Shown: positions 31,077-52,300 of the stretch, in pieces
How positions within the stretch are numbered: the stretch's first letter is position 1
How the letters are laid out: each line of letters opens with the position of its first letter
Assembly: GCA_010356995.1 (NCBI GenBank)
Contig: ML996696.1
Span: 684,364 to 748,363, forward strand
Direction of reading: 5' to 3'
DNA from: Trichodelitschia bisporula
Taxonomy: Eukaryota
DNA: 64,000 nucleotides
Notes under the pieces: model-generated
The model's database searches: none
The model's input: only the letters and a program-made list of their open reading frames with translations
Told to the model about the DNA's origin: nothing
Translations under genes and position numbers: made by a program

Positions 31077-32620
31077 CTACCTAACATCCACCCGAAAAGG
31101 TCTAAACTTCCCCCCCACAGCCCTACAAACCGGACACCCAACCCCCCGCCCCCTCCTCGCCTCCCCCGCAATAACATCCACACAAGCCGCACACAAGCCG
31201 CAAATGCACTCCGTGCACGCATAGCTCTCACCCAAGATGCTGAGCCTCTTGCACCCAGCGCAATATATCTGCACACTCCCGCCGCCGCTCCCCAGCCCCC
31301 CAATCACACCTCCGCTTCCCGTACTCGAGCTAAAGTTACTCCCGCTGCTCCCCGTCCCCACCACTCCCCCGCGGTACACGCCTTCGGGCGACTCGACCGA
31401 GGGTAGCGCACCCACGCTCGGCGGACTGGTTTTCAGCCCGGGGGGCGGTGTATGCGCAGTGTGCAGCGGCGAGGTGCCGGGTCCGCCTCCAGCGCCGGCG
31501 CTGGCAGCGGCGGGCTGCGACGTAGGGTGCAGGTGGAAGATGGGAGGGAGAGAAGCGCGGTGCGGAGACGGCGAGGGGGGAACCTAGGCCGTCCGTTAGC
31601 AAGCCCGCTACAACTAAAAAAAAAAAACCCGACGCCCTTACCGGGGTGAGGTCGCGACTGTCCTCCTCTGTCGCACTCGCCGCCGCATCAATCAGGTCCT
31701 CCCAGCGCTTCCCCATGAGAACGGCGGCGGCGGAGGGCTCAGCGCTCATGGCCTTGCGCTCGTAGGAGGCACGACGCGCGTGCAGCCCACTAGGCCCGCG
31801 AGACCGCGCGCGCTCGTGCTTGGCGCGGCGCGCGGATTGCGCCATGTTGCTGCTCTTGCGCGGGCGAGGCTTGGTTGGACCGCGGCCGCCGGGAGGGAGA
31901 GTGGAAGAGCGGTAGGGCGGGGAGCGGTCCAGCGAGCTGGGGAGGAGTGGCCGTCGGTAGGGGTCCGAGGTGGCGGTGGTGGGGTCGCTGGAGAGGTAGA
32001 GTGCATGGCGGAGGCGTGGGAGGGAGTCGGGGTCCGAGGGGAGGTCCTGTTTTTTCGTTAGATGGAAAGAGGTACGAAGCTAGAAAAAAAAAATGCTTAC
32101 GGCCTCGTCCCATGGCCGGTGGTTGTGCAACTGGGCCAGTGCCTCGGCGGCGTTGGCGGCGGGTAATAGCGAGGTGCGACGGTAGGGCGCGGCGCGCTGC
32201 ACCGGCCCGGCCGGGTAGGCGTAGTCGTCCTTGTTGTAGTAGTAGTCAGAAGGCGGGCCATTGGAGCGCGGCTGGGAATTCGGGGTCACGGCGGTGGCGG
32301 CGGCACGGTCGGCGGACGGTGGCGTCGACACCATTAGCGAGAAGGACTCTTCCGTCGCCGGGAGCTTGGGAATGTAGTGCTCGGGGTGGGCGCGACGGAT
32401 GTGCTCCTGCATCGAGCGGTAGCGCTTTTCCTAAAGAAGGGAAAAGGCTTAAGGTTAGTTTTTGGAAATTTGGGGTGATTTAGGGACATAGTAGTAGGAA
32501 GGAGCGCACCCCGATGCAGCGCTTGCGACATGCTGACCCGTCATGGTTCTTGAGCGGACAGACGACTTCGTTGGCGGCGTCGGAGACGGATAAGGAGCTG
32601 AGGGCTGATCGCGGCGGCAT
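31077..32620 (-). CDS. Conserved Pezizomycotina zinc-finger protein (N-terminal C2H2-like, C-terminal RING-like)
   Basis: Spliced reading MPPRSALSSLSVSDAANEVVCPLKNHDGSACRKRCIG|EKRYRSMQEHIRRAHPEHYIPKLPATEESF...GKRWEDLIDAAASATE...CAGC..YACTECICGLCAACVD..CPVC. Three introns (~32431-32509, ~32033-32100, ~31584-31641). Confidence 0.82.
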
Positions 32621-32736
32621 GAGCGATTGTGGGTTGCCGGCATTAAGTTTGGTAGTATGGGGTGGGCATTGAAGTTTGGTGTTGGTGGTAGCAGAGGTGG
32701 CGGTGGTGATGATGTAGTAATGGTGTTCGGGCGGCA

Positions 32737-32922
32737 GTGGTGGTGGTGGTGGTGGTGGAGGTGGTGGAGGTAGAGGTAGAGGTAGAGGTGGAGGTAGAGG
32801 TAGAGGTAGTAACGAAGGTAGAGCTGGAGGTGGTGGTGGTGGTGGTGGTGGTGGAGGTAGAGGTAGAGGTAGTAACGAAGGTAGAGCTGGAGGTGGTGGT
32901 GGTGGTGGAGGTAGAGGTGGGA
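32737..32922. repeat. Compound GGT/GTAGAG simple repeat with an internal ~60-bp tandem duplication
   Basis: (GTG)n and (GTAGAG)n tracts; the block GTAGTAACGAAGGTAGAGCTGGAGGTGGTGG occurs twice. Confidence 0.9.
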
Positions 32923-33427
32923 GCTGTGAGGAGGTTGGAAGGCGAGGAGGGGTAGATATGATGATGGAGCAAAAAGGGAAGCTATGATGGAGTGGAGAGA
33001 AGAGGGTGGAAGGCGTGGGTAAGGGCGGAGGAAGTAGCGATGGGGAGGGAACGGGGGGGTAGGGGATTGTTGGTTGTTGCGGTCACGCTGATCAGCTTTT
33101 GGTTTGCGGTGCGTCGATGCGCTTCTTTCATACTTCAGCTCGCAGTTCTCGGGTTGGCTGAGAGAGTTGGTTGGTGGGGGGTGGGGGGTGGGTTTGGAGC
33201 AAAGTGAGGGGGGAGGAGAAAGAGAGATGATGGAGGTCGAGGGAGGTGAAATGGTTGGATGGAGACAAAGACGACTCGGCAGCTGATGGGAAATGGAGGG
33301 ACGAAGAGGAAGCGAGAAAGGCGACGAGAACAGACACTCTAGGAAGAAGACGAAAGCAACAAGCTCAGCTGAGGTACAACATCAGCAAGTAAGAGAGCAG
33401 CAAATTTGGTGAGAGAGTCAGCAAGTT

Positions 33428-34267: not shown

Positions 34268-34379
34268 CACGAGACGACGAGGCGACGAGGCCACAAGGCC
34301 ACAAGGCCACAAGGCGACGAGACCACGAGGCCACGACGCATTAAGGCATTAAGGCAATAAGGTACTAAGGCATTAACAG
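34268..34379. repeat. 8-bp-period tandem repeat (~14 units)
   Basis: cacgagac gacgaggc gacgaggc cacaaggc x3 gacgagac cacgaggc cacgacgc attaaggc attaaggc aataaggt actaaggc attaacag. Confidence 0.85.
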
Positions 34380-34978
34380 GCTGGGGCAGCAAGGCAGCGA
34401 GGCGGTGAGGCATCACGCTTTTCCGGCAATCCGGTTGCACAGCCATACCGCCTCGACTTTCCCATCCCACCAGCCACACCGTCTCGACTCTCCCACTCCG
34501 CGAGCCGCACCCGTCACGACCTTCCCACATCACCTGCCCACCACCGCCGTCTCGACCTCCCCCCGGCCTCGCGTCGACAAGCACTGACATCCCCGCCTTC
34601 TCTCCGACGGCGAGTTGCTGCCCTTCTCAACACCATATCTGAGTGTGTATAGGTATCACTCCACTGACTTTACAGCTTCACCCTCCCCCTTCATCCCCCG
34701 CTCCATCCGTTGCCTCAATTGCACCAAGTACGGGTTGCCAGTCTCCCGCACCCACACTCGCACCCACACCCGCACTATCACCACTTTGTCTCACCCACCA
34801 TGCCAACCGCTGCAAGCCACTCGCCTCGCGCTGCCCTCCGGCGCAGGGCAGACAGCATGGACGCCTATTTCTGTCCTTGAACTCCTCCCCCTCTTTGTTT
34901 CCTTCTGCTGTATCTTCTTCACTTCCCTCCATCCCTCCATCCCTCTCCACCACATCTCCTTACTTACCTCAATCCCCT

Positions 34979-35263
34979 NNNNNNNNNNNNNNNNNNNNNN
35001 NNNNNNNNNNNNNNNNNNNNNNNNNNNNNNNNNNNNNNNNNNNNNNNNNNNNNNNNNNNNNNNNNNNNNNNNNNNNNNNNNNNNNNNNNNNNNNNNNNNN
35101 NNNNNNNNNNNNNNNNNNNNNNNNNNNNNNNNNNNNNNNNNNNNNNNNNNNNNNNNNNNNNNNNNNNNNNNNNNNNNNNNNNNNNNNNNNNNNNNNNNNN
35201 NNNNNNNNNNNNNNNNNNNNNNNNNNNNNNNNNNNNNNNNNNNNNNNNNNNNNNNNNNNNNNN
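34979..35263. other. Assembly gap (N run)
   Basis: About 285 consecutive N. Confidence 1.
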
Positions 35264-36043
35264 CTCCTCATCTCGCAATCCCAGCCCGACCACTGCCACG
35301 AGCCCACCCTGCGCACCCTCTCCCCCTCCACGCCCCTCGCCCTCTGCGCTCCCGCCGCCGCCGCCGCTTTGAAGAGCTGGTCTATCCTCCCGGGCCGCGT
35401 CGAGGCCCTGCAGCAGTACGACCCGGCCACGCCGTCGTCCCTGCGCCGCATACCCGTCCCGGCGCTCGGGTGTGCGCATGGTGAGATCACCGTTGCGTTG
35501 ATGCTCCCGCCATGGGGCAGCTTGGACGTCAATGGCTTGCACACGGCGCTGGGGATCACGTACACCTCCCCCACCGCACCCGGCATCCAACCCGAACACA
35601 TCTCGATCCTGTACTCCCCGCACGGACTCCCCGCAGCCTCTATCGAGCCGTGGGCCAAACACGTCCTGCGGGGCGAGCGCGTCACGGTGTTATTTCACAG
35701 TTTGTCCGTTGTGGATACGCCGTGGTGGATGGGCGGGAATGTGGCGCGGGGGGTGGAGGGGGGATTGGAGGTGGCTAGGGTGGTTAGACCTAGGGTGTGG
35801 GTTGCGGCGCACGAGGGGAGGAAGCATGCGGGGGGGTTGATGGCGAGGGTGGGGGGGGTGGTGAGGAGGGGGGTTGAGGTGCAGGATGTGCGCGTGGAAG
35901 GGGTTAGGGTTTTGGGGTTGGGAGGGGGTGAGAGCGTGGTTGTTGATGCGGAGGGGGGCGTTGAGGGGGGGGAGAGGGGGTTTGGGCGCGGGGAGGAGAG
36001 GGGAGAAGGGGAGAAGGAGGCGGTGGAGAAGGGGCGTGAGTAG
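35264..36043 (+). CDS. Metallo-beta-lactamase-fold protein (fungal conserved); 5' part lost in the gap
   Basis: ISQSQPDHCHEPTL (MBL-like xxxxDH), GLHTALGITY, ILYSPHG, WWMGGNVARG and WVAAHE. Confidence 0.7.
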   Translation, partial: LLISQSQPDHCHEPTLRTLSPSTPLALCAPAAAAALKSWSILPGRVEALQQYDPATPSSLRRIPVPALGCAHGEITVALMLPPWGSLDVNGLHTALGITYTSPTAPGIQPEHISILYSPHGLPAASIEPWAKHVLRGERVTVLFHSLSVVDTPWWMGGNVARGVEGGLEVARVVRPRVWVAAHEGRKHAGGLMARVGGVVRRGVEVQDVRVEGVRVLGLGGGESVVVDAEGGVEGGERGFGRGEERGEGEKEAVEKGRE

Positions 36044-36522
36044 GGTGGTGAGGAATGGGTGGTAGTGACTTGATGGGTGGAAGCACACATGGACGGTGCT
36101 TGGCGGTTTCGATGGCTTAGTGAGTTCCATTCTACCAGCATCTTCTTCTTAGAGCGTAGAACAATGCAAGCACATCTACCCCAATACTCCGCTCGAGGCA
36201 GTACACTTCCACCGCGTGGTCTCCATGCAACGCGACTGCACCCAGCGCCCATCCTCGTCACACCCTGATCTGGCAGCGCCCGGGCGATATCGTCGCTTCA
36301 GGGCAGCGCAGCCTTATAACCGGGTAGCCACGTGTGTCTCGGCCCAATGACGTCTACCGGCCCTGCCATCCAAACCGCATCACGACCACCTCACCTGCAT
36401 CTCAACGCCTTCTCCCAGCATATCCAGGCAGCCCCCTTCCCCCACCAGGCGGGGCAAGCTCAGCACCGAGCATCGAAGGCACCCACTGCGAGAGCGCAAT
36501 CAATAATCCAGCCCAGCTGGCC

Positions 36523-36553
36523 GGCGGACGGGTATAAATCCCGCCCGTCCGCC
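36523..36553 (+). promoter_or_regulatory. TATAAA box within a perfect 10-bp inverted repeat, immediately upstream of the arrays
   Basis: GGCGGACGGG-TATAAATCCCG-CCCGTCCGCC, followed by a CT-rich tract. The promoter role is inferred. Confidence 0.5.
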
Positions 36554-36585
36554 CACCGATTCAAACTCTCCATCAGCACCAGCAC

Positions 36586-37615
36586 CGCCTCTTCTCTCGC
36601 CTTCCCATCTCATTTACTCTTTGCACGAGGCATCATCTCTGTTGCTCTCTTTCTGGCTCAAGTAGCTCCCAATCCATCGTTTCTTCTTCGGTTCGTCTCC
36701 ACGATTCAGCGCGAGGCATCTTCTCCGCTGTGCTGCTTCTGGGACCAGCTAAAATCAACGCAATTGCCTCTTCTTCGGCTCGTCTCTGCGATTCAGCGCG
36801 AGGCATCGTCTCCGCTGCTGATCCTGGGGGGGGAGTCGAAGAGGAAGTATTGTCCCTCCTTCGCCTCATCCCCACTCTTCCTCGCGAGGCTGAGTACTCG
36901 CGGCGCGCATCCTGGGGCCGCAGCATCCCGCATTATTGCCTCTTTCTTCGGCTCGTCTCCACGATTCAGCGCGAGACTGAGTTCTCGCTGTGTGCATCCT
37001 GGGGCCAGTGCAAGAAGAGGTATTGTCCCTCCTTCGGCTCATCTCCACGATTCAGCGCGAGGCTGAGTCCTCGCTGCGGACTTCCTGCCTGTCGAATGCA
37101 GCAAGGAATTATCTCTTCTTCGGCTCATCTCGACGATTCAGCGCGAGGCTGACTCTCCGCTGCAGACTTCCTTGCTGGCGAACAGGAGGACAAATTGTCT
37201 CTCTCGCCTCATCCCCACTCTTCCTCACGAAGCATCGTCTCCTTCCCGCTCATCTTGGATGATGACGATGATGGTATATTGTTTCTTCTTCGGCTCACTC
37301 CACTCTTTCGCACGAGGTATCGTCTCCGCTGTGCTGCTCCTGTGGCCGCAGCATCCCGCATTATTGTCTCTTTCTTCGGCTCGTCTCCACGATTCAGCGC
37401 GAGGCCGAGGCCCCGCTGCGGACTTCCTGGTCCTCAATCAAAATGATCCATGGTCTCTCCTTGGGCTCATCTCCACTCTTTCGCACGAGGCATCGCCTCA
37501 CGTTCATCCTGGTTTTGAAATCCACCTCGATATCGTCCCTCCTTCGCCTCCAGAACCCCTCCTTTCCCCACGGGCCCAGCACCATCCCTCCCATCCAGGA
37601 CCACCGTACTCCACA
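36586..37615 (+). repeat. Array 1: ~12 units of ~86 bp, with a conserved ~55-nt core and a variable ~25-30-nt spacer
   Basis: Unit starts at 36676, 36763, 36849, 36935, 37022, 37108, 37194, 37278, 37363, 37450 and 37532. Consensus ATTGTCTCTTCTTCGGCTCRTCTCCACGATTCAGCGCGAGGC....TCTCCGCTG. Confidence 0.92.
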
Positions 37616-37696
37616 TCGATTCCAGCACCCAACACCCTCCCCCACCCGCCCCCGTCCGGTCGGGGTGGTATCCGGGGGAGTCCGACACGCTTCTCG

Positions 37697-40075
37697 ATCT
37701 CCGCCCCTGCGTCCCGCCCCTCGGCACTCCCACCCGGGGCTGGCCAGACTACCAAACTCTCAAAACGTGTCTCCGCCGTCGGCGCCTCACGTCCGGTGCG
37801 GGCCCGTAACGTTATCCGGGGCCTCCTTCTCAGCCTCTGATCTCCGCCCCGGCGTCTCGTCCTCGACAACCCACCTCGACTACCCAACTCGTTCGGGGGC
37901 CGGCCAGGCTGTCTACCGAGACCGTTCATGCTCTGCCGTCGGTGCCGCACTCCCGTCGCCATCATCCATCGCCATTCCAGCTCTTCGCTCCCGTCCGGTC
38001 GGGACGGCATCCGGGAAACCTACAACCCCGCAAGATCTCCGCCCTGGTATCCTGCCCTCGGCACTCCCACCGGGGGCTGGCCAGGCCACGAAACTCGCCA
38101 AGTCATGTCTCCGCCGTCGGCGTCGCGCGCCCGTCGCCATCATCCATCGCTATTTAGCTCTTCGCACCCGTTCCGTCCGGGCCGGCAGTTGGGACCTCTA
38201 CTCTACCCCCATATTCCCACCCCCTGGTATCCTGCCCTCGGCACTCCCACCCGGGGCTGGCCAGACGGCCAAAGGTATAAAGCGATTTCTCCACTGTCGG
38301 CGCCGCGCGCCCGTTAGTATCTATCGCCATCCGCCAGGTCTTCCGCCTCACGCCCGGTGCTGGCCGGAAGCCGGGCGCCTATCCGGCCACAATATTCCCG
38401 CGCCTGGTGTTCCGTCCTTCGCTACCTCTACTTGCTCGGGGCTGGCCGGGCGCTCATCCATCTCTCTGCATGCTCCTACCGTTGGTCCCGCGGGTACCTC
38501 GCCATCATCAATCGCTACGAGCCAGGCTTTCCGCCTACGGTCGGGTCCGGGCCGGTGAATCGGGCGCCTAGAGAGGCAGCGCTATCTCCGCGTCCCGACG
38601 TCCCGCCCTTCGCTACCCGCACTCTTCTGGGGCCTGGTTGGGCGTGGCAAGATGAAATATGGTCCTGCCGTCGGCGCCCCGCCCCGCTACTGTCATCTAT
38701 CGCTATGAACTACGCCTTCTGCCTACCATCGGTTCCGGGCCGGTACGCCGGGCAGGCAGAAATGCAAATCCATCTCCGCGCCCGGCGTCCCGTCCTCGCT
38801 ACCTCTACTCCATTAGGGCTGGCCGGGCATGTACGCCAGAACTACTATTGTCCTGCCGTCGGCGCCGCGCCCCGCCACCATCGTCTATCGCTATCTGCCC
38901 GGTATTAGGCGAGCGCGACTGGCACGGCCGGAAACTCATCAACATGCTCCAGCTTCCAGATCATGAACTGAAATCCAATCACCGGGTCAGGGCCGGTAAA
39001 TCGGGCCCTCAAGCGCATCAAGCGATCTCCGTGCCCGGCGTCTCGTCCTCACTGCCCCTACTCAGTCAGGGCCGGCCGTGCACGGGAAGTAGTGGCTTCA
39101 TTCTCCTACTGTCGGCGCTGCGCGGACACGCCGTCGTGAGCTATCGCCATACGCCAGGCCTTCCGCCTCGCGTTTTAGCCGGGCCGGCAGCCGGGACGCA
39201 TTTCGGCACGTCGTATCTCTACCCCCGGCAGGTCATGCCAACCTCTCATGCGCTCGCTCGGGCTGGCCGGGCAGTATGAGCTGACCAAATACACTCGGTG
39301 CTGGCTCGGTTCATGACGACCTCCGCATACGCCCTTGCCGCCGGCGCTGCTTATACCTACCGCCATCGTCCATCGCCATCTACCAGTTCTTCCGCCTCAC
39401 GTCCGGTCTAAGCCGGCAGCTAGGACGCCCTCCTCCCTTCGTATCTCTGTCCCCGGCAGGGCATGCCAACCGCTCATTCGCTCCCTCGGGCTGGCCGGGC
39501 AGTACGAACTGACCAAACATGATCGGGGCTGGCCTGGGCCTACACTATATTCATCTACAGTCCCGGCGCTGGCGCCGCTTCCACCCGTCGCCATCGTCCA
39601 TCGCCATTCCAGCTCCTCGCCCCCCATCCGGCCGGGCCAGTACGTCGGGCTTTCCAACCACCCATAATATCTCCGCGCCCGGCGTCCCGTCCTCGCTACC
39701 CCTATTTGGTCAGGGCGGGCCGGGCGAATGACGGAGAAACTCTATTGTCCTGTCGTCGGCGCCACGCGCACCTGTCGTCGTGAGCTATCGCCATGCGCTA
39801 GGTCTTCCGCCCTACATTCGGGCCGGGCCGGCAGCCCGGACGCAGCACGCCACCTCGTATCTCTACGCCCGACACGGCATCCCGGCCCATCATTCGCTCG
39901 CTCGGGGCCTGTGGGCATGAAAAGCTGGATACGCATGCTCGGTGCTGGTCCAGGCCTAGAGCACCTTCGTCAATGGTCCCGCCGCTGGCGCCGCTTGCAC
40001 CCGTCGCTATCGTCCGTCGCCATCCGCCATATCTTCCGCTCCGTCGGGCAAAAGTATCCCGGCAAGAATGTGCCC
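37697..40075 (+). repeat. Array 2: ~12 dimeric (A+B) stem-loop units, modal period ~190 bp, with variable linkers
   Basis: B units (ATCTCCGCGCCCGGC...GGGCTGGCCGGGC) start at 37697, 37840, 38035, 38213, 38394, 38584, 38772, 39025, 39215, 39443, 39669 and 39859. They alternate with A units (ATTGTCCTGCCGTCGGCGCC...CATCGYYAT...GGGCCGGCAGCCGGGA). Confidence 0.9.
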
Positions 40076-43000
40076 CGCCGGTCAGCGCCGCGCACCAGTG
40101 CCCGGGCGCGCTTCGGTGACCCCGGTGCTGGGATCGGCTGGCTGCGCAGATAAACAATGCGGCGTGGCCAGGTTAACAATATGACGACCATAATGCTTCC
40201 GTCCTCGGCGCTCCTCCACTTTATCCCATGCGCTCTGCCTGCGCTGGTGCCGCGCAACGGCGGCGGGGCGTGTTGGCATAGCTTCGTATGCTGAGGTTGG
40301 CAGGGCGTGGGGATGTACGATGCAGCTGGTCCGGGGCGTGAGGAGTGCGAGTGATGCCTCCGGCTGCTCGGCGGCCAGGCTCTCCTACTCCTCCAGCCAT
40401 GCTGCGGTTGGCGTGTCCTGCGCGGGATATGCGGCTGGGCCGGCGGTCAGGAGCAGAAGTGTTGCAATATATGCGGCTGTCGTTTGCTCGTCTTTCGTGG
40501 TCCGACGGATACGGCACACGCTACGGTCGACGTGCCCTCGTCACGCCTAGCATCGACTCTGCTGGGATGCGCAAAGAGGGAGATGATGTTGCCGTCGTTT
40601 TCTCGTCTTCCGGAGTCGACACCGGACGCGCTACGCGTTGCTATCCTTGTGTCTTCGGCATATGCGGATGGCGGCTAGGCCGGGGCCGTGAAAGGTCTAT
40701 TTTATGCTGCTGCCGGCGTGCCCTCGTCACGCCGAATACGGCTCGGTCGGGTCCAGAATCAGAAGACCAATGCTAGGCCTTTCGAGCCCGTTCGCGACCC
40801 GGAGGGTCTCGGGTAAATATGCCCGTTCCTCCCTTGCAATGCGCTGACCCCCTAGATGTACTGGATTCCGCGGCTTTGACGAGGTCGGAACAGCGTCGCA
40901 TGTCCCGCTGGGTCTCAACCTACTTCCGGGACAGAGCCTCGGTCCCCTTCGCGCGACACGTATGCTCCCGTTGTCTGCTCGTCTTCCGAAGCGTATACCG
41001 ACGGACCTCTCACCACGGCTGCTGCTACAGGTGTTCTATTCATCGCTGTTTCTCCATCGACATCACCAACTTTCATGGTTATGCTTTGGTACCCAACAAT
41101 GCGAAGCTATGCTCCTGTCCGGTCCTCTCTCGCTTCTGGTTAAGCCCGACTCGGTCCGGTAGGCCCCCTCCCACCATTCCCCGCTCCTTAGTCTAGGTCA
41201 GGCTGATACTGGGTAAAGCATCCCGGCTGGTCTCACTACCTATCCATTCCCGGCTCCTAAGCCTAGGTCAGGTTGATATAGGGTGAGGCATTCCGGCATT
41301 TAACCCGTCTTCCATATGTGCGCTGGCCGGTGTCTGGATCCTCTCCCCCACCTCATATTGCGCCTCTGTCTCTGGGATCTGGCGGAAGGTGCTCAGTGCC
41401 ACATTTATGTGCGACGGCCCTAGGTGTGCCACAGCCCGAGTCCGGCTGGTGCAATGGGCCGCCTTGTCATCCATCAGAACCTGGTGCTCGGCATCCCATC
41501 GCGGCTCCCATGATCGCGCCCCCGTTTCCGAAAGCATTGTCAATCAAGAGCATACGGCCCACCCGCGCCGCGTCCCGCGTGGTGCTGAGGAGGTCAAGCT
41601 CTTCAACGATGGCCGGCCTGTCCATTTAGCCCGACAGCAAGTCTCCAACCGGTGTCTCGGCCCGTGCATCGGCCCGTGCATCGCGATCGCCTCGCTCACG
41701 GGAGACTTTCCAGGGCTTCGCCATCCAATTCGATGCGGCTCGCCCGCGTGGCGTCCCGCGAGCGGCCACGCATCCTATCGCTGCATGCCGCTCTGCGCGG
41801 CTCGGTCCAGCACCATCACTTAGTTCATCTTATCTCTCAACCCCCTATGGCCCGGGCCGTCCCTAGGCCGGACAACATCTGCCCGAATTGCCGTTCCGGT
41901 CTCGCTGGGTCATTTTATCTCAATGCTTGCGCCGGTCTCCGGGCCGCCTTCAACAACCTCGATTCGGCTACGGCTGTCGAGTCCCGAAGTCGGGCCCGGC
42001 GAGGAGCCTGTTCTCGCCATTGTTCCCATGGCCGGTTAGCTCGTCTAGCCGCACCTCCCATGCTTGGTTCGTGCCCGGGGGCCCGGGCGGCGAGAATGTC
42101 CAGCACTTGCGGGCCCGGTGTGACCCTCCTGTCACATACCGGCAGCCGTCCTACCCGGCGTGTTCCGCTTTCAGCCTCGTTGGCCGAGCCTGGATCCGGA
42201 ATTTAGGGCAACTCGTCGGCTCGTGCCTAAGCCCGGCGGCTGAACACGAAGGACGATTGCGGGCTCGGTCTCTGCGCAAGCATTCGAATTTGGGGTTACG
42301 GCCCCTTCTGCCAGGTCAAGACGACAGCATATTTCGGTGGCCTATCTTCCTCTCGTAGCCGCGGCACCAGTCCCCTCACTCCCACCGATCAGACAGATCT
42401 TCCAAGACCTCATCGATGCACCCCCACACCACCGCCATCAAAACCCTCAACACCCTCACTATCAGCATTTGCGTATGCGTTTGCACAGACGCTGTCAAAA
42501 GAGACCCAACCAGACAAGTCAAGTATCCCATGACCTCTGGCGCACACCGTATCAACAGCTGGATATGATTTCGGCCCTGTCTCCTGTGTGCTGGCCGGCC
42601 CACTGGATGTTTCGTAATCCACGCCCAGAATCAGTTCCCTGCGCCGTTTTCCATCGGCATATTCATCTCCACGACATGTCCGTGGCGCCTTTGGACTACA
42701 TGGCTTCATCGCCGGCGGTTCCTGGGCCAAAGTCCAAATGAACAATGTGCCGGTGTCTGGCCCCAAACTCAAATGGCGAACGTGACGGTGTCTGGCATTC
42801 GACTCTGCGAGTCCATCTGCCGGCGTCCGTCGTCCGATACAGATGGCGACTGTGCCAGATCCGCCTTTGCAGCCGAGTCCAACGCCCACCCGCGGCGCCC
42901 ACGGCTGCTATATCAAGTCTAAGGGCTACTTGGCCCGTCCCGCTCCGCTAAGGTCACTCATAGCACCAGTCCGGAAACTCGGGCTCAACATTCATCTCTA

Positions 43001-44629
43001 CTGTGCGTAAGGGTCGCCCACTTGTTCTAGGACTCAGCGTCGGGAGACGGGGCCCAAAAATCAGCGGCCTATGTCGGTGAGCTTGGCTGCTCGCTGTCTA
43101 GTCGGGCATAGTCTTCTACTACTGTATTCGTGCCTTGTCGGCTGCACGGCTTCATCGCCCGGCTCGAGTGTGGATCACCGAAGGTCTATCATCGGGCTCC
43201 CTCGCTGCCCCGCGGTTCTGGGTACTGTGACAAATTATTCATTGTCCCGCGGCGGCTGCGTGGCTTCGTCACGCGGCTCGGGCCGAGACGCACTAAATGG
43301 ATTTATGCCCCGCTCGCTGCTCCGCAGTCACCGGCATAACCAAGTCAAGATGCATCTTCTACCCCCCCGCTGTCCCGCAGTCCCGGACCTTGACTAGCCG
43401 ATATGTACCTTTTGGCCCCCTCGCTGCCTTGCAGTCCTCGGGCGGCCTTCCAAACGTCTCTTGCCTCGTGGCGGCTGCGGCGTCTTGGGCCGCCTATCCA
43501 GCAGCAATTTACCGTGGGACCCGCCGCGAGCTCTCGGTCCGAAGATCTCGGTCGGATCAACTGAACTGTATTCGTGCAGTACGATTCTACTTGAGCTCGG
43601 CCTCGCTTTCACTCGTTCGGCCGTTCAGGTCGGGCCAAGTACAACGACCCTCGATCGTGGTGCTCCGGTGGAAGCTGGAGCCACCCAGGCCTGGCCGGGT
43701 TTGTAAACCTTCTATCTCATTCAGCTCTCCTTCTTTATTAGCCATGCGGGGTGATCCGGACCAGTGACCAGTCTGTCCAGACCTAACGAACTAAGGATCG
43801 GCCCAAGCTTCACCCAGCACGGTGCAGGCGGATCATGTGCGGCTTGTGCCTCAACCCATTTCTGCCATGCCTTCGTCATGCCAAATGGCCTACTACGCTC
43901 CGGTCCCACTCGAACTTCATAATTGCCGGCCCCGAATTAAGACATCTGATTTTGGGCGTCCTTCAGACCATGAAATGGCCGGGTCTGAACCTTTAACGCA
44001 TCATTGCCGGTGTTGCCCCACCTTCTGAACTTTACTACCAGACGTCCTCCCGTCGTCACATCACCGCCAGCTGGAGTTGTGATTTCTCAAAACAGGACCT
44101 ACGTGCTCGCACGCTGCCTGCGTCTCGCAGTTCGACAAAGGTTAACAGATGTATCTGCTGAGCCAGGATTACCTCATTTCCATCAGATGGTCTGGTCGGC
44201 TCCACCTCAGGCCCTGTGCCTAACTGTCCTATGATTTGGCGGGTTTGCGGCCGACCTCACTCAACCCGTATGGGATCGCTTCGTTTCCGATTCGTCCTAA
44301 TGGCATCGTTCTCCGGTTCAGCATTAACGAGCCGAGTAAATCTCACAGGACCATTACTTTTGCGCTGTGTCCAGCGGGCCCCGGGCGACCACTTATCGCA
44401 TGAACTGTTCGGCTCGGCGCGCGGTCGACATCGACGACGATGTATCGTGCCAGGCAACTTTTGCCATCCTGTCATGTCCGCGGCCGGCCGCGCCCGGAAG
44501 TCTCGAGTGCCATTTTGCCCAATTATGGATCGCCATGACTGCCCTGTGTGCGAGATGAAGCGCTGTCTGGCGCCAGGAGGAATTCACCCATTGCTGTGGT
44601 CTTCTGGCGGGGGCTGGCTAGCAGCACCC

Positions 44630-46652
44630 ACTTCCAATGTACCTGCCGTTGGTACCGGCCGAAGTGACGCGCTCGGGTCATGCAGACACAGACACCGACA
44701 CATTTGTTCCTCCTCGGTCCGTCTGCGCTCGATAGCCACGTATGGGATCAAGGGTGAACAAGGAAACGAAGCATTGCTGTTGCGCGGTCTGGACTTGCAG
44801 CGCCGGTATGCCCGGCTTGAGCGCCAATGAGCTTGTACATCGCTGCTATGATCTTCCGGTCGGGACTGGCCGATGTCGACATGGACACATGTGCCCTCTT
44901 TCCTTCGGCTGCACGCGGTACCGGGCCCGGGGCCCGGCTCACCATGCCGCCACCCCATTTCCCCGCATTCCGTCGGCGCCCACAAAAGCGGGGCACTTGA
45001 GTCGGTCGTATCGCTGCTGTTATAGGTTTACTTCTCCTCGGTCCGCCTGTGCTCGATGACGGGCGGGTAATCCGGAGAACTTCCGAGCCAGCTGATTGCG
45101 GTTGCGCAGTCGGGGCTTATACCACCGGCAAAGCTTGTTCGGGCGCCCAACAGCGCCGAATATTCGCCGTCGGCCCGTCCACAGGAGACACAGGGCGCGG
45201 AGGCCGGATACCATGAACTTTGGTTCATTACCGTTGGGCAAACGAGCATTTCCTGGATGTCCGCCGTCTGGCCGGCTTGGGCGGGTATACTGGAGCAGCA
45301 GTAGGCAATCGAATGTGCTGTCTTCCCGGTTACGACGCACGGCACTGGGCCGGCAGATCGGCAAGCAGTCCCGTAAGCTTATTACCGGGCACCAGTACCA
45401 GGTCGACAACTGTTCACCGCAATGTGTCCCTCAGTCCGTTACGCTTTGACGGCGGGCGCGTAGTCCAGGACGAGAAGCTGGTGAAAAAATGCGGTTGTGT
45501 GGTCCGGGCTTGCGGCTGGCATACCCGGTAATTACAAAAGTTTTCCGATGCCCGTGCCGTCGGTTGGCCTGCTTAGCGGATGTGGATACAAAGAAATGTG
45601 CCCTCTTCCTTTCGGCTGCCTACAGTACTGGACCGGATCCCGGTATGCCGCCTCTCGCACTCATTGCCGCCTGCGTCGGGCTGGGCACGAGGTACCCCTC
45701 GCATGCGTTTCTCAGTCCATTGCACTCAACAGGGGGCGTAGTCCGGAGCCCCAAGGCGGACAAGCATTGCGGTTGCGCGGTCGGGGCTTTTAGCCGACGT
45801 GCCCGGCAAACCTTACAATGTTCGTATGTCCGTGCCGTCGGTCCGGTCGCGGCAAATGCGGGGTCTCTAACCGGGGCAACACCCCACACCCTTATTGCTG
45901 CCCGGCGCGGCTGGCCCTGATTAAGAAACTCGCCGCTCATTTTCGTCGGTTGGCCTTCTTGGGGGACATTAAAGCCCATCATACTGCCCTCCTCCTTCCG
46001 GCTGCGTACGATACTAGGCCGGTAGGCCGGCGGCCCGTCCTACACCCTAATTGCTGCCTGCGCCGGAGCGGGGCTTGCAGCCGACGTGCCCAGCACGCAT
46101 ACCCACCCCCTCATTCGGTCCGGCCGCGAGGGGGCAGGTGCCACTAGCCGAGACAACGCACAACCGCTCAAATTGCCTCCTCGGCTCGGCCGGCCCGGAT
46201 GAACAAGCGCATCAAAGATTTCCGTCACTTGGCTTTCCCGGGCAACAGCACATCCGCGAAACTGCCCTATTCCTTTCGGCTGCGTACGGTACTACCCCCG
46301 GAGTCCGGCGGCGAGTACTTCAAGTCCATTGCCGCGCGCGCCTAGGCTAGGCGCAAGACACTCACTCGCATGCGTCCCTCGGTTGCGTTGCGCCCGGTCG
46401 CGGGCCGAGTCCGGGCCTGGAATACAGCCACGAATTCGGCTGCGCGGCCGGGGCTTAGCACCGGCGTGCCCGGTTTACATACAAAGAGAACCATGTCCGT
46501 GCCGGCGGTCCGGCCGGGAGGTACTGGCACGTAGCCGGGGCCGAGAAAGCCGCAAAGGATTGCCGTCCGGCGTGGCGGGGCCGGGTCCGGAGTGCTCACC
46601 CTTCATGTCTGCCGTCGGCCTGCCTGTGGGGGATGCGGGGCGGTCGGGCTGA
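44630..46652 (+). repeat. Array 5: highly degenerate multi-part repeat related to the array 2 A unit
   Basis: Recurring ATGTCCGTGCCGTCGG(T/C)(T/C)GGCC (~44637, 45257, 45548, 45826, 46493, 46605) and CCCTCTTCCTTTCGGCTGC.TACGGTAC (~44894, 45600, 45987, 46266). Confidence 0.75.
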
Positions 46653-47815
46653 AAACGACGGAGAGTAATTGCTGCGCTGGCGGCGGTGTAGGTAGAGGTT
46701 GTGGACTGGTATGACGGGCGGAGGAGTCTTGGGACAAATGTGCGTTGCTTCGGGTTTGGTGGTGCTGTAGATCGTGCTGTGTTGAATAATAGCCGAGTCG
46801 AGATGTGAGCGGTTGCGTTCAGCCTTGTCCTTCGTGCCTTGTAGCCAGCAGACCCATCCGCTGCAGTATCAACTGTGAATTATCCCTTTTCAGTCTGCCA
46901 TCCGTGTACCCAGCGCAAGCCCGGTGGTTGCCCAATTGCGGCCCAAGCGAGCGCGCAGGAAGGAGTGGGCACGCGCCGTTCCAGGGCTAGGGCGATGACG
47001 ACAGCACCACCACCAGCCTTAACCCCCTCCACAATCACCCTCCATCGCACGCAAAACCACGCAAAACCATCAGCACAAGACCCTTAGCCCCCTCCACCGT
47101 GCGAACGGCCCCAGCCGTCGAAAATCTCTAGCCGAAACCGCGGACCCGCTGCGTCGGACCCCGTTCCCGACAGGCCGGGTAGGATCCGAGCACGGGCTTC
47201 GTGACGACGGGGCGGTCCGCGTGGGGCGGGGTGGGGGTAGGACACGCCCCGCTGGGATGTGGGACCGTTTTAAAGAGCGTGGGTGACTGGTGTGCTTGAT
47301 GGGGTGGCGAAGGGTTGATGTGGTTAATGAAGGCTTCGAGTGGCTGATGAAGTTGACGGTTCTGCAAGACAAGGGGATGCTGTAAGTGAAGAGGACCTGG
47401 CACGGACAAGTTTGAGGAGCGGAACAGCATGCCGAGCAAAGTGTTGGCTAGTAATACCCGTATAGCGAATGGACATCGATCGCGCAGTCCCCCCGTTCCG
47501 TATGCCTCGGGTTACTGTCCATCTATCTCACCCGTCGCCCGCCGCAGTCGCCGTGGACTTACAACCCCACCGGTTCCTTCAAGTCAGCTACCAAGTGAGA
47601 CACCAACCGTCCTCTATTCCTTTTTAAACCCCTCCGCCCCAACCCCGAACCGAGAAACAAGAGGGAATGAAAAATGCCTCGCCGCAAGAACGCAAACTCG
47701 CAGAAACAGAAAGGACAACCACCCGCCCAGAAATAGCAAAGAGATCTCGCCATCGTCATAAATTCATAAGATCGCGGCCCCCTTTTGTGCATCCGTCACC
47801 AGTGCACCCCCATGG

Positions 47816-49391
47816 TCACCGTGCTGACCCAATAGGAGGAATCCCAGACGTGTTAGCAGCGCGCTGTGCACGTTCACGCGCTTCCGCCTCGGTGGGCTTG
47901 CGACCCCATACCACGTATCTGGAACTTAGCTGGGCCGTCAAAATGCACGCAAGGCGACTCACATCCGATGATAGGCATGTACTCTCCGGTCCGAGAGAGC
48001 CTGGCGCACGCGTACAAGGTACACCTCAATCTCCTCCTTGGTCCATCCAAAAGCGGTGGAAAAATATCTAAGAGAGAAGGCCTGCAGTCCGTCCAGAAGA
48101 CTCTGCTCCCAAAACCGGCCGAGCAGCTTGTATTGCGGATCCTTGGGCCACGGGTTGATCGGCATCTTCATCACCTCCTCGTGCACGTCAACGAAGCCAG
48201 CCTGCTCGTACCATCTCTTCATCTTGTTGCCAGTGCGGATCGGTACCCTGCAAGACATGGCCGCTTCGTCCAGATTCCTCGACCATTCGAGGAAGGGGTG
48301 GTCTTCAGGCATCGTCCCGTCGTCGCAATACACCGTCGGGTAGAGTTCTTGGCTCTCCATCCACCCTCCCGGTTCCAGATAGCGGAATGAGCGGTTGATT
48401 AGCGCGCGGAAGTCCTTAAAGGAGCCTAACAATACACGCGTGTGGATGTAGTCGTATGTCTTTGAGCCCCAATCATCTTGTGAGTTGTCCTCAATTAAGA
48501 AGCGCACATTATCGAAGGGGCTGATAGGTCAGCAGTACTCAAACGAGAGGACGAGACGTACTTCTCCTCAAAACTCAAGGACAAATCCGTTCCGGTCAGC
48601 TGCACCTGTCAACACTGGTCCAGAGCGTGTGTGGAGACGAGTACCTGAGCATTTGGAAACTCTTCCGCTGGAACACGTTAGCTGCGGTTCGGGCATGTGA
48701 ATCGGTCAGTCGCACCCATTTCCAAGACCCAACGGCCAGTGCCAGTGCCGATATCCAAAATGCGACAGGGGCTTCCGATCGGCGCGAAGTAATTACGGTT
48801 GCCGAAGAGGTTCTTCAGCACGTAAAACTGCAAGTTGAGTCGCTCGTGCTCCATCTAGAAGCGTGAGAAGTCTTCCACCCGAGAATATGGCATGCATACT
48901 TCATCGTTCGGCAGATAGTACGCTTGACGCGTTTAGTACTGCAAATGCAAAAGGAGAGGTCACAAACTGCTGCCTTCGGAAAAACGGTGGTACGTCCGGC
49001 CATTTTCTCGGATGTACTCGTAAATGCTTTCCCTCACCGACCTTGTACTGCTGGCAGTGACCGGTTAGCGGGCACGGCGGCTGCGGGCAGCCGTGTGGGA
49101 CGAACGTACGACAGCACGCTGTTCTGGTCGTCAGACTGCGGGGGTTAGATGAGCTTTAATGGTGGCATGTGGCGAAGAAACGAAGACGAGTTCAGACAAA
49201 AGGAAACGATAGGAATTTTCACACCTGGTTTCAGATGAAAAGAGACGTCAAGGAGTGATGGGATAAACGAAATGTAGCAGTCTTACATCCGCTTCGATAA
49301 CGGCGCGTGGGCTGAGGGCATCATCAACGCTCGACTCAGGCGATTGAGTATTCAGAAAGGCCCCGGCTTGAGGCGTCTCTGGCGGTAACAT
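47816..49391 (-). CDS. LaeA-like SAM-dependent methyltransferase (Methyltransf_23/TAM type), multi-intron
   Basis: Spliced reading SIYEYIRENGRTYHRF..YYLPNDE|MEHERLNLQ..RILDIGTGTGRW...YDYIHTRVLLGS..LEPGGWMESQE..PINPWPKDP..HAY|..VVWGRKP. About seven introns. Confidence 0.92.
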
Positions 49392-52300
49392 GGCTGGGAT
49401 TGGGTGTGTGTGATGGACCCGAAGAATGGGGAATGTCGTCAGTCGCTCTGTCGAAATAAGGCAGGAGAGTGACTGCTGTGCGTGGGGAGTTGTACTCTGG
49501 GGTAATGTGTGAGAAGATGGGGTGTGGGAATGGGGCGGGGATGGTGGAGGTGTTGGGTGGAGGGAGGCAAAACCAGAGCAGCGGGCGAGAATTCCAAGGG
49601 AAAGGGACGGGAAGGAACCCAGGGAGACGGTTCGTGGCCGTTTTGTGCGAGGGGGGAAGGAATCGTGGGTAAAAGAGGCGAAGGGGAGAAGAGGTCGTTT
49701 TCCCTTGAATCATGTTCATCTCACCTCCATCGCTCGTCTCCTCTATCTCCCCCCACACACTACACCCACTCACTACCCGTACTTACCGTACTACACGTTC
49801 CCGTACCCCATACCCGCACCACGACCCCTCTTCCCTCCCCCCAATCCATCACCCTAGTCACTTCATTGCTTCCCGTTTCCTCATCAACCACGTTCTTTCC
49901 CCCATCTCCGACCCCGGCCATGTCCATTGCTCCTTTCTTTTTCGTTCCGACGAAGCAAGTGCTACCCTCTGCCTACCCGTAGCTTCGTCGCCGAGCCAGC
50001 TAGCAAGAAGCGGTAGCGCCTTCTTTGACTAGCTAGCCCGACCTTAGTGCCTTCCGTGTGCTCCACTTTGTAAGAGACCTTTTCCTGACTCCTACGGTAC
50101 AGCGGGGCAACACCTGTCGACTCTGCAGTCTGACAGAAGGGCAACGTGGGACGGGAGCGGTGGATGCCACGAAAGCGCAAATAGGAAAGGGCGAGGGAAG
50201 TCGAAGGCCCAAAGTCTCACCGCTGAATCGAACCTCTTACTATCCTTCAACGGTACACACTAATTAATATCCCGAAGAACCGATAGAGTACAAACTACAG
50301 CAGAAGCTCAAAGGTAAGCATTCGGACTTACTCTCCATGCCATCCCAAGAAAGAGATCAATACGAAGAAGCTAGTTCTAAGCTCCCAACCACTCCTTCCC
50401 ATTCGGCGCAATCTCGCCCCGCCCACCGGGCTCTCTGCAAGCCAGAACCCAGCCATACCTTGCGGGAGGTGAGCCTTTCCCTCGGAATCGGCGCGAGGTT
50501 GCACAGATGATGGCTGCAGCCTCGCACGACCATTTGCTCTTCTCTGTGCCGTGCTCGCTGAGGCTGCCGCGCGACGCGGGCGTATCGGGTGAAGAGGTGA
50601 GGGAACGCCCAGTCTCTGATGCGCATGCAAGTCTCGCATCTTACCCTCACTACGGATTACTCACAAGCAAAAGCCAGAGTTAGAGACTGTCTTCGACGTG
50701 GGGTGAGCGCGGGAGCGGCGCGCAAGAAAAATAAATAAAAAGAGGAGGAGGAGCTGCAGTGCAATGTCAAGGATCCCCCCGCCTTTCTCGCCCTACCGTA
50801 TTGCCGTTGTGCCCCCAGGCCGGAAACGGGTGAAGAGTAGCACGGGCTCACCGAGGAGTGCACGGAAGACGGATTACGATACAATAGTTCGTCACATGAC
50901 AAATATCAACGACATCGTCTTAGAATTGGGACTGAAGAGAGAGGATGTTGAAGCCGTTACCTCGTCCTCGAGGCACCTTACCCAGAACTGACAAGCACGC
51001 GATACGACACACCTTAATGGCAAAGCGAATGCAGTCTGCAAGGGCCTTAGGACGCTTGGAGAGCGAGATCAGTCGCAGGAAACTGGTTGGGATATGCGGC
51101 CCGACCCGTCCAACGTCGAGATGAACTCATTGCTTTTCCAGGGTTGGAGCTCCACACTTTTAGCGACATTAGGGCCAGACAGCAACTTTAACGACTTCAG
51201 AATATACTATACCTTGAAGATGTTCAGCGGACACCAATTAATGGCAGAGAGCAGTGGCAGGAAGCTAGCTCCGTATTCGGGCGTCGACATCTCGACATCT
51301 CTACGGTACCGGTACGAATATCCACACCGCTCTTCACTTCGTCTCGGCGGTCTCGCTCGGGCATACCGTAATGATCCAGGACCGAATGGCGGGAATCCGG
51401 GCTCTCCATTGATCTCATAATGACGACGCGGCCTAGCGTCCTCACCATTCCCGACCCCACAAAACGCATCAGGCACGCTGAGCCGGTACAAAGGCTGAAT
51501 CTGAGGCTGGGAGGCAGCAAAATATGAGCAGTCGGAAACAGTCATCGTTAGCTAATTTACAGAGCTTGCCGACCCTCTGCCAATTTCCCCTGGACCCTCC
51601 TTCGTTCTTCTCCGCGGACCCTTGAACAACATGGAACGAGACGCTAGCTGGACGCCTAAAGCAACGTATAGGAAGTATCACGGAAGCAACTCCAGACTGG
51701 TTACACAACGTTCGAAAGGTGAATTCGCTATCCGAGCAACCTAACGACGTGTTCCCGAGAATCTCGAAGATATCCAGTCTAGAGGCAATGGCTTCCAAGT
51801 TTCTTCTCGCGAAGGCAACTGGCAGGGCGCAAACCACACGAAATGAACGGTTCCTGGTTCGTTGGCTACATGGCCACGGCCTGGCACTTCTGACTTTCGC
51901 AAAGGATCCCTATTCGAAGCGAGAGCTGCATCACTGAAATTGCAGTCCCTTCATGGATTCCAGGCCTTAGACTCACGGCTACATTCGAGTATGGTGTTCA
52001 TCATGATCCACTGATCGGCACTTAGTTTTTGCAACGTCGGCAGGCCAGACAGACTTGCCTTGAGGTCAGAGGCCTCAATATTCGGTTCTACGAGCAAATA
52101 ACGATACTAACCACCATCCTCCTCCAAGCAAGCAACACTGTCCAAAACCATCACACCTACTGTAGTACAGCACCGCCATACTCCGCCGCCCGCGCCCACG
52201 ATTGCAGATACAACAGCAAGTCGAAGTATCTCAAATCAGTTTCAACCACCCCAAATATCCTGCACAACTCGCTTTCCAGCATCACTGCGCACCAATCCCG

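Follow-up and report, generated by a model that had tools for sequence, protein, structure and literature searches.

The block described here lies between protein-coding genes, the flanking open reading frames (ORFs) matching the Pfam families F-box, Mito_carr, RING-like, Methyltransf_23 and UDG. The left neighbour, taken for an MBL gene in an earlier sequence-only reading of this DNA, could not be confirmed as such, its C-terminal 256 aa giving no Pfam family. Within the 64-kb window (the whole stretch of DNA analysed), positions 36001-47400 form the longest stretch devoid of codon periodicity, with a GC difference between codon positions of at most 0.14 in all 600-nt windows, compared with 0.2-0.48 in genes. 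At the family cut-off, 0 of the 69 block ORFs of at least 80 aa match a Pfam family, which bears out the claim that the block holds no recognisable gene. The block ORFs display GC1=GC2=GC3, whereas five real genes of the window follow GC2<GC1<GC3. Searches disclosed neither a tRNA in the block nor an rRNA match in 34-49 kb. DNA depth is flat over the block and its flanks, at about 190-240 in run X1 and about 320-455 in run X2, and the block is therefore single-copy.

The composition of the block is distinctive. Its GC content of 0.59-0.66 (about 0.61) exceeds the 0.50-0.56 seen in the window's remaining gene-poor stretches, and it is poorer in A; pyrimidines are abundant on the + strand, with A at 16%, C at 34% and a T>A skew over the whole 10 kb. 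Neutral decay by itself is insufficient to explain this GC-richness and A-poverty.

The repeats are direct and restricted to the block. Self-comparison by blastn retrieved 31 direct pairs, 0 inverted pairs and 0 pairs outside 36000-47500, in agreement with the claim of a single orientation, and TRF detected degenerate head-to-tail arrays; repeat finding identified 23 families of direct repeats and a single weak inverted pair. Neither the blastn self-comparison nor nhmmer located block repeats elsewhere in the window, and when metagenomes were scanned, the array A core and a B core had 0 matches each. The detectably repetitive share is ~54%, that is, about 5.5 of 10.2 kb, including a 70-bp dimer and three clear arrays, (i) A, 86 bp x ~11, (ii) B, 177-253 bp x ~13, and (iii) D, 278-390 bp x ~6, with faint dimers elsewhere. 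At least five tandem arrays had been proposed; A, B and D stand as degenerate arrays, and the supposed '115/187' and '55/112' arrays reduce to weak traces in the middle part. The statement that unit lengths are not multiples of 3 fails for some B units, of 177 and 180 bp.

Array A (36586-37550, + strand) contains some 11-12 units, each 86-87 bp long; TRF gives periods of 86 and 173, and the higher-order period is 172-173 bp. Each unit displays a conserved 35-nt core (CTTCTTCGGCTC..GCGAGGC) followed by a variable tail; the alignment shows a mean column identity of 64% and a mean pairwise unit identity of 0.59, and the reading frame shifts between successive units. The octamer CRCGAGGC matches the window 18 times against 8.6 expected, 8 of these matches being array A itself. 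An 8-bp repeat, xxxxAGGC, at 34268-34410 resembles the end of the array A core; no link between the two is claimed.

Array B (37651-40048, + strand), delineated by nhmmer, TRF and blastn, consists of some 13 complete or incomplete units, 177-253 bp long, whose mean pairwise identity is 0.59 and whose higher-order offsets are 228, 415 and 644 bp; nhmmer returned 14 + strand matches with E<=8.8e-7 within these limits and none elsewhere with E<0.04. Array D (about 44565-46600, + strand) contains about 6-7 units of 278-390 bp by nhmmer, with blastn offsets of 278, 664 and 671, the units being 40-65% identical (mean pairwise 0.52). Arrays D and B have in common the motif GCCGTCGG, of whose 15 window matches 9 fall inside the block, all 9 on the + strand. 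The middle part (40049-44560, + strand) is mostly unique, with faint direct repeats at offsets of 186, 70, 53 and 35 bp, and encloses the 70-bp dimer, a direct repeat at 41174-41297. Compared with 20 dinucleotide shuffles, the region 40.05-44.7 kb yields 18 direct matches against a mean of 3.3, with 4 of the 18 scoring at least as high as the best shuffle, and 2 inverted matches against 2-6.

Mismatches between nearest-neighbour units provide a non-circular test of the proposed alternation of conserved core and hypervariable linker. In array A, cores differ at 17/114 positions and linkers at 43/141 (0.15 vs 0.30, p=0.0046); the corresponding values are 54/219 and 93/318 in array B (0.25 vs 0.29, p=0.28) and 24/81 and 37/94 in array D (0.30 vs 0.39, p=0.2). 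The alternation thus survives for array A, whose cores are slower, but not for arrays B and D, in which cores and linkers are equal in rate. Linkers diverging like cores had been named beforehand as the mark of a neutrally decaying satellite, and this neutral behaviour is found in B and D, whereas the array A linkers are faster. The slower array A cores hint at constraint there. Each of the three arrays has conservation that clusters along the unit, with a lag-1 autocorrelation of 0.43-0.61 (permutation p<0.001), and linkers of array A are alignable between units, as with the tails of A04 and A09 and those of A06, A07 and A10.

Three + strand ORFs of the block are publicly recorded as proteins: (i) P0001, 371 aa, at 37443-38558, an exact match to NCBI/UniRef and a singleton cluster; (ii) P0123, 157 aa, at 41733-42206, a singleton; and (iii) P0124, 199 aa, at 44231-44830, also a singleton. 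Their GC1/2/3 values are 0.65/0.66/0.65 for P0001, 0.68/0.65/0.60 for the stop-to-stop ORF around P0123 (41589-42203) and 0.61/0.59/0.56 for that around P0124 (44162-44827). A phmmer search of P0001 against 1.84 billion representatives retrieved only itself and one repeat-driven match, P0002 (E=1.2e-10); this 1574-aa protein contains six identical repeats, and its match over 47 residues is read as due to chance and inflated by the repeats; P0123 and P0124 have no homologues among up to 5.8 billion sequences. P0001 is judged to be a non-coding ORF annotated as a gene.

Unstranded contigs from runs X3 and X4, both representing a single sample within a single study, provide shallow coverage of the block. 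Their RNA nature is deduced solely from joints that skip introns, X1 and X2 being DNA runs. At least two such introns lie on the + strand, (i) intron 1 at 40813-40855, 43 nt, GTAAAT...CTGAC...TAG (joint 40811>40855, GT..AG at cut +1), and (ii) intron 2 at 41159-41218, 60 nt, GTAGG...CTGAT...AAG (joint 41157>41218, GT..AG at cut +1). X3 and X4 each show both joints, X1 and X2 neither, and at both introns X3 and X4 alike were assembled in spliced form. A low-level spliced + strand transcript therefore exists, and the statement that the block holds no splice-consistent exon chain falls. Spliced ORFs around the two introns reach at most 164 aa and are R/S/C-rich. Transcription and processing, evident from the X3 and X4 introns, are accompanied by an absence of coding capacity, the combination that characterises an lncRNA (long non-coding RNA).

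Contigs confined to the block have an RNA depth of 2-13, compared with hundreds to thousands for the flanking genes; a gene-poor stretch at 49975-51975 shows a similarly low RNA depth. An unstranded 9006-nt X3 contig (39671-47918) carries both + strand introns and extends into exons of the convergent - strand methyltransferase gene; as it spans two genes it does not imply a single transcript, and its depth of 653 is a whole-contig mean, uninformative for the block itself. One X3 contig starts at 36309, upstream of a TATAAA motif (36533-36538, + strand) that lies about 50 nt before array A and is a possible core promoter element.

The hairpins attributed to the units are indistinct from shuffled controls. 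Mean folding z-scores are -0.06 (+) and -0.14 (-) in the block, against 0.20 and -0.14 in the flanks, and match shuffles, and the Rfam search gave no family, its one match, mir-668, being at chance level (E=0.52), its 26.2 bits falling short of the gathering score, 87. Covariation is negligible in array A, for which RNAalifold reports -1.07 kcal/mol and 0 compensatory pairs; in a 6-bp stem, GCGAGG/CCTCGC, 79.7% of cells pair and 3 pairs show a change on each side. Array B is marginal, with a covariation term of -0.49, paired cells at 90.5% against 88.7% in shuffles, and a covariation of 0.294 against 0.255 reached by 9/500 shuffles (9-23/500 across the observed values), ranks that related sequences reach in 5-25% of unconstrained alignments. 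Its consensus fold is -18.4 kcal/mol on the + strand and -9.6 on the - strand, with two-sided change in 6/25 pairs.

In addition to the demonstrated repeat anatomy, missing coding signal, single-copy state and + strand splicing, the best explanation holds that the block is probably a lineage-specific, mostly neutrally decaying single-copy tandem-duplication block that gives rise to a low-abundance lncRNA. It would have grown by repeated local head-to-tail duplication, through slippage or unequal exchange, the units having since diverged to 50-75% identity mostly by neutral decay, with an older middle part decayed nearly past recognition. RNA polymerase II would transcribe the + strand at a low level from a promoter near 36.5 kb, and the transcript or transcripts, from which two or more short canonical introns are removed, would extend in the direction of the convergent Methyltransf_23 gene and probably enter its 3' end. 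A low-abundance lncRNA devoid of specific function would result, publicly annotated as three orphan proteins. In favour of this explanation are repeats that are only direct and absent outside the block in the window, the faint direct-repeat excess in the middle part, the flat DNA depth, the equal rates of B and D cores and linkers, the ordinary substitutions, the lack of folding excess and of an Rfam family, ORFs devoid of periodicity and Pfam families, the three annotated singletons lacking homologues, introns present in RNA and not in DNA contigs, and the low RNA depth of the block-only contigs. Against this explanation stand the array A cores evolving at half the linker rate, the clustered conservation in all three arrays, the higher GC and A-poverty, the better + strand fold of array B, the one-sample unstranded nature of the RNA contigs and the similar low depth at 49975-51975.

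A functional modular lncRNA is unlikely; on this reading its cores, foremost the 35-nt one of array A, would form a multivalent docking platform to which an RNA-binding protein attaches, or the transcript would exert antisense or interfering control over the convergent methyltransferase. The spliced + strand RNA, the contig joining the block with the 3' end of the - strand gene, the halved rate of the array A cores, the clustering of conservation along units, the single orientation of all units and the T>A skew through the whole 10 kb speak for it. However, the block-only depth equals that of another gene-poor stretch, B and D cores are no slower than their linkers, the closest units of array A still differ by 15% in their cores, and the contig bridge is no proof of a single transcript. 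Its most specific form, an 8-10 kb C/U-rich spliced fungal lncRNA of tandem modules in which the array A core, perhaps with the GCCGTCGG cores of B and D, attracts a single kind of protein in many copies and in which the RNA or its transcription controls the convergent LaeA-type methyltransferase, is a distinctly long shot; if true, it would be the equivalent in a fungus of the regulatory lncRNAs that animals build from repeats.

The units of 172-190 bp lie near the nucleosome repeat, the conserved cores are CGG/CCG-rich with GCCGTCGG placed 9 times on one strand, the GC content is above that of other intergenic DNA and the duplications are exclusively direct, all of which would suit an element acting at the DNA level: an array of transcription-factor or chromatin-protein sites, an element that phases nucleosomes or acts as a boundary, or a hotspot of recombination in which GC-biased gene conversion maintains both the high GC content and the tendency to duplicate, with transcription as a by-product. 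We regard such an element as quite improbable, since the motif copies arose mostly by descent within two arrays and a site array in DNA has no need of strict compositional strand asymmetry. Less probable still are one or more real, fast-evolving orphan protein genes, represented by the three ORFs in the annotation or by a spliced ORF spanning the two introns, or else the remains of a former repeat-protein gene. The three public records, the existence of introns and a peptide motif recurring in frame in P0001, because two B units lie 177 and 180 bp apart, would fit such genes; the uniform codon-position GC and absent periodicity, the lack of Pfam families and of homologues in 1.84 billion or 5.8 billion sequences, the changing frame in array A and the shortness and R/S/C-richness of the spliced ORFs argue against them. 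A polycistronic precursor that yields numerous structured or guide-like RNAs, each combining a conserved hairpin with a variable targeting linker, is hardly credible: the array A stem, the marginal array B covariation and + strand transcription, which stands for at least part of the block, are compatible with it, but Rfam, z-scores, the near-zero array A RNAalifold result and the shuffle ranks are not in its favour, and the linkers, which match nothing elsewhere in the window, are not acquired spacers, because the repeats are only about 59% identical pairwise and linkers of different units align.

Compared with known systems, the block resembles minisatellite or satellite-like arrays in its head-to-tail, non-coding, solely direct units of 86 and 172-190 bp, its higher-order periods (173; 415/644) and its unit subfamilies. 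Unlike satellite DNA, it is a single locus of about 6-13 copies per array, with DNA depth equal to the flanks and no copies elsewhere in the window, its units are ~59% identical pairwise, and several unrelated arrays adjoin rather than extending genome-wide. The sub-repeats of rDNA intergenic spacers likewise form successive different arrays that are non-coding, GC-rich, weakly transcribed and in one orientation, whereas the block is single-copy by depth and sits between protein-coding genes. The likeness to CRISPR arrays, an alternation of conserved and variable segments in one orientation, is superficial: the block is eukaryotic, its transcript is spliced, no cas-like ORF occurs (0/69 in Pfam), its repeats are 0.59 (A), 0.59 (B) and 0.52 (D) identical with lengths of 86-87, 177-253 and 278-390 bp, and its 'spacers' are homologous to one another.

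NORAD is an animal lncRNA built from tandem repeats. The Xist repeat modules and PNCTR are further examples (PMC8786293, PMC6224606). Like these, the block gives a long, spliced, non-coding RNA made up largely of repeated units in which conservation is higher in some parts than in others; it differs in its very low RNA depth and in having slower cores in array A only. At the level of titles and abstracts, the literature searched contained no fungal locus of such kind.

The main value of the analysis lies in annotation, three public 'hypothetical proteins' being probably ORFs in a non-coding repeat-derived transcript, and the striking 10-kb 'repeat-spacer' pattern being accounted for by ordinary decay of tandem duplications. 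If the slower array A cores and the transcription reflect function, the locus would offer a rare, tractable repeat-built lncRNA in a filamentous fungus, beside a regulator-type methyltransferase gene.

Repeats mutated by RIP are AT-rich, with TpA/ApT >0.89 and (CpA+TpG)/(ApC+GpT) <1.03. The block, described from the outset as GC-rich and not RIP-like, displays indices of 0.64 and 1.19, respectively, and bears no RIP signature; CpG is not depleted (o/e 1.04), and the substitution pattern among the repeats is ordinary, with a Ts/Tv of 1.2-2.1. Tandem duplications of 86-250 bp units can thus persist in this lineage free of RIP-like mutation.

The block, a gene-free stretch of about 10 kb at roughly 36.0-47.4 kb, was probably produced by serial local tandem duplication specific to this lineage; the duplicated sequence would now decay, for the most part neutrally, and low-level + strand transcription would yield a spliced long non-coding RNA (lncRNA) converging on the - strand methyltransferase gene to its right. 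In looks and working the block resembles a duplication block of the minisatellite type, with higher-order repeats, that yields an lncRNA; the protein-coding flanks rule out an rDNA spacer, and no fungal locus of this kind came up in the literature searches. The block is single-copy, since its depth equals that of the flanks in two DNA runs, probably from the source sample. Two metagenome scans, one with the array A core and one with an array B core, returned no sequence like it, and a methyltransferase exon found its best named matches in Dothideomycetes, at no more than 71% identity.

A repeat search of the block disclosed 23 direct families and one weak inverted pair, and a blastn self-comparison gave 31 distinct direct pairs and no inverted ones, with no match to block sequence elsewhere in the window outside 36000-47500. 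In TRF, 36683-37230 repeats with an 86-bp and a 173-bp period, and 37926-38314 with one of 178-180 bp. The arrays, with extents set by profile searches, comprise (i) array A (36586-37550), with about 11-12 units of 86-87 bp; (ii) array B (37651-40048, + strand), with 14 nhmmer matches and units of 177-253 bp; and (iii) array D (about 44565-46600), with units of 278-390 bp. Together with a 70-bp dimer at 41174-41297, they render about 5.5 of the 10.2 kb clearly repetitive, so that the proposal of the sequence-only reading that the block is built from at least five successive arrays holds for about half of it, two of the five being mere traces. The middle of the block (40.05-44.7 kb) consists almost entirely of unique sequence: it contains 18 weak direct matches, where 20 dinucleotide shuffles average 3.3; four of the 18 score at least as high as the best shuffle, and its inverted matches are not enriched over such shuffles. 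The motif GCCGTCGG is common to arrays B and D; the block accounts for nine of its 15 matches in the window, all nine on the + strand. Most of these copies are copies by descent; the two arrays may have a common ancestor, or the match may be due to chance. Where array A gives way to array B (37537-37550), the contigs of both DNA runs cease to match the window and continue as a long poly-C, which may reflect a homopolymer-length problem or assembly uncertainty.

Contigs from two further runs (X3 and X4), of one sample and one study, skip short GT..AG or CT..AC introns of the flanking genes that are kept in the DNA runs, identifying X3 and X4 as RNA. Within the block, X3 and X4 skip two + strand GT..AG introns with plausible branch sites, of 43 nt (40813-40855) and 60 nt (41159-41218); at both, the assembled form is the spliced form, and thus RNA, not contaminating DNA, dominates the cover there. 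A 9006-nt X3 contig extends from 39671 across both introns to 47918 and into exons of the convergent - strand methyltransferase gene; it represents overlapping cover and does not establish a single molecule. Just before array A, at 36533, lies a TATAAA motif, a candidate promoter element judged by its sequence. Block-only RNA contigs have depths of 2-13, compared with hundreds to thousands in neighbouring genes. A second gene-poor stretch lacking coding periodicity (49975-51975) displays a similar RNA contig depth, 2-15, and low-level transcription or background seems to be general, beyond the block.

A functional modular or antisense lncRNA would draw on the same spliced, convergent transcript, and the nearest functional analogy for the block may be the animal repeat-built lncRNAs, such as the Xist repeat modules and PNCTR; NORAD is another repeat-built animal lncRNA. 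Conserved positions cluster along the unit (lag-1 autocorrelation 0.48 in array A, 0.43 in B and 0.61 in D; permutation p<0.001), a measure on which indel-prone parts weigh because gaps count as differences. In a non-circular test, with columns classed from other units and mismatches counted in mutual nearest-neighbour units, cores and linkers (the more and less conserved parts of the unit) mismatch at 17/114 and 43/141 positions in array A (Fisher p 0.0046), 54/219 and 93/318 in array B (p 0.28), and 24/81 and 37/94 in array D (p 0.2). Linkers diverging as fast as cores had been proposed as one mark of a neutrally decaying satellite: arrays B and D decay in this way, whereas array A cores are slower, a modest hint of constraint. 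We consider a functional lncRNA unlikely.

Somewhat less likely again is an element acting at the DNA level, namely a site array, a chromatin element or a recombination hotspot, which could account for the raised GC content too. The + strand of the block is poor in A (0.163) and rich in C (0.344), the CpG observed/expected ratio is 1.04, and the RIP signature is absent from the block (TpA/ApT 0.64; (CpA+TpG)/(ApC+GpT) 1.19).

Genuine orphan genes, or the remains of a wrecked one, are improbable, even with public protein records for three + strand ATG ORFs (37443-38558, 41733-42206 and 44231-44830), among the 20 of at least 100 aa in the block. All three are singletons, protein database searches found no homologues, and we read them as parts of a non-coding transcript; the sole other phmmer match, a repeat protein of 1574 aa that is unrelated, was rejected as inflated by repeats. 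Across 36001-47400, GC differs among the three codon positions by no more than 0.14 in 600-nt windows, against 0.2-0.48 in the genes of the window, making the block the longest stretch of the window devoid of this coding signal. Block ORFs are flat in GC1/GC2/GC3 (e.g., 0.65/0.66/0.65 at 37443-38555), and all five real genes compared follow GC2<GC1<GC3. None of 69 stop-to-stop ORFs of at least 80 aa on either strand reaches a Pfam cut-off (top score 15.7 bits, cut-off 27).

A structured or guide-like array is highly improbable: the block fails each CRISPR-like feature tested and the tested defining feature of any Rfam family, and the supposed spacers are not foreign inserts, because the unit tails align with one another across units, in subfamilies. 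An Rfam search returned a chance-level match only (mir-668, E=0.52), and a tRNA search of the block found none. Mean folding z-scores (150-nt windows, dinucleotide shuffles) are, for the + strand, -0.06 in the block against 0.20 in the flanks and, for the - strand, -0.14 in both; array A is the sole negative-leaning part (-1.03). RNAalifold gives array A -1.07 kcal/mol and no compensatory pairs; a 6-bp GCGAGG/CCTCGC stem, picked by hand from the same sequences it was scored on, forms pairs in 79.7% of cells and shows three changes that are two-sided. Array B has a consensus fold of -18.35 kcal/mol on the + strand (covariation term -0.49) and -9.61 on the - strand, with 90.5% of cells paired versus 88.7% in shuffles; its measures are reached by 9-23 of 500 shuffles, a range in which unconstrained related sequences often fall in the method's own trials. 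Its + strand fold is flattered, since the excess of C>T over G>A changes on that strand (78 vs 30) by itself turns G-C into G-U pairs.

On the left, the + strand gene next to the block (34.6-36.0 kb) contains a run of N at approximately 34980-35270, which may be an assembly gap or withheld sequence; the gene's C-terminal 256 aa match no Pfam family, leaving its 'MBL' label unconfirmed. Just upstream of this gene, a microsatellite-like run with an 8-bp period occupies 34268-34410 (about 17 units of xxxxAGGC), and 34440-34542 holds 3.3 copies of a 31-bp repeat. Further upstream, a - strand ORF (32455-33381) contains long stretches rich in His, in Tyr/Leu and in Pro and falls in a 1-kb bin of very strong GC skew (0.488); it could encode a repeat protein or else be repeat DNA of low complexity. 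On the right, the - strand LaeA-type Methyltransf_23 gene (47.4-49.3 kb) has, at 47918-49287, at least nine very short introns, 41-62 nt long, and a further one of 151 nt, and one intron displays alternative 3' ends in RNA contigs (49047/49050 to 49110).
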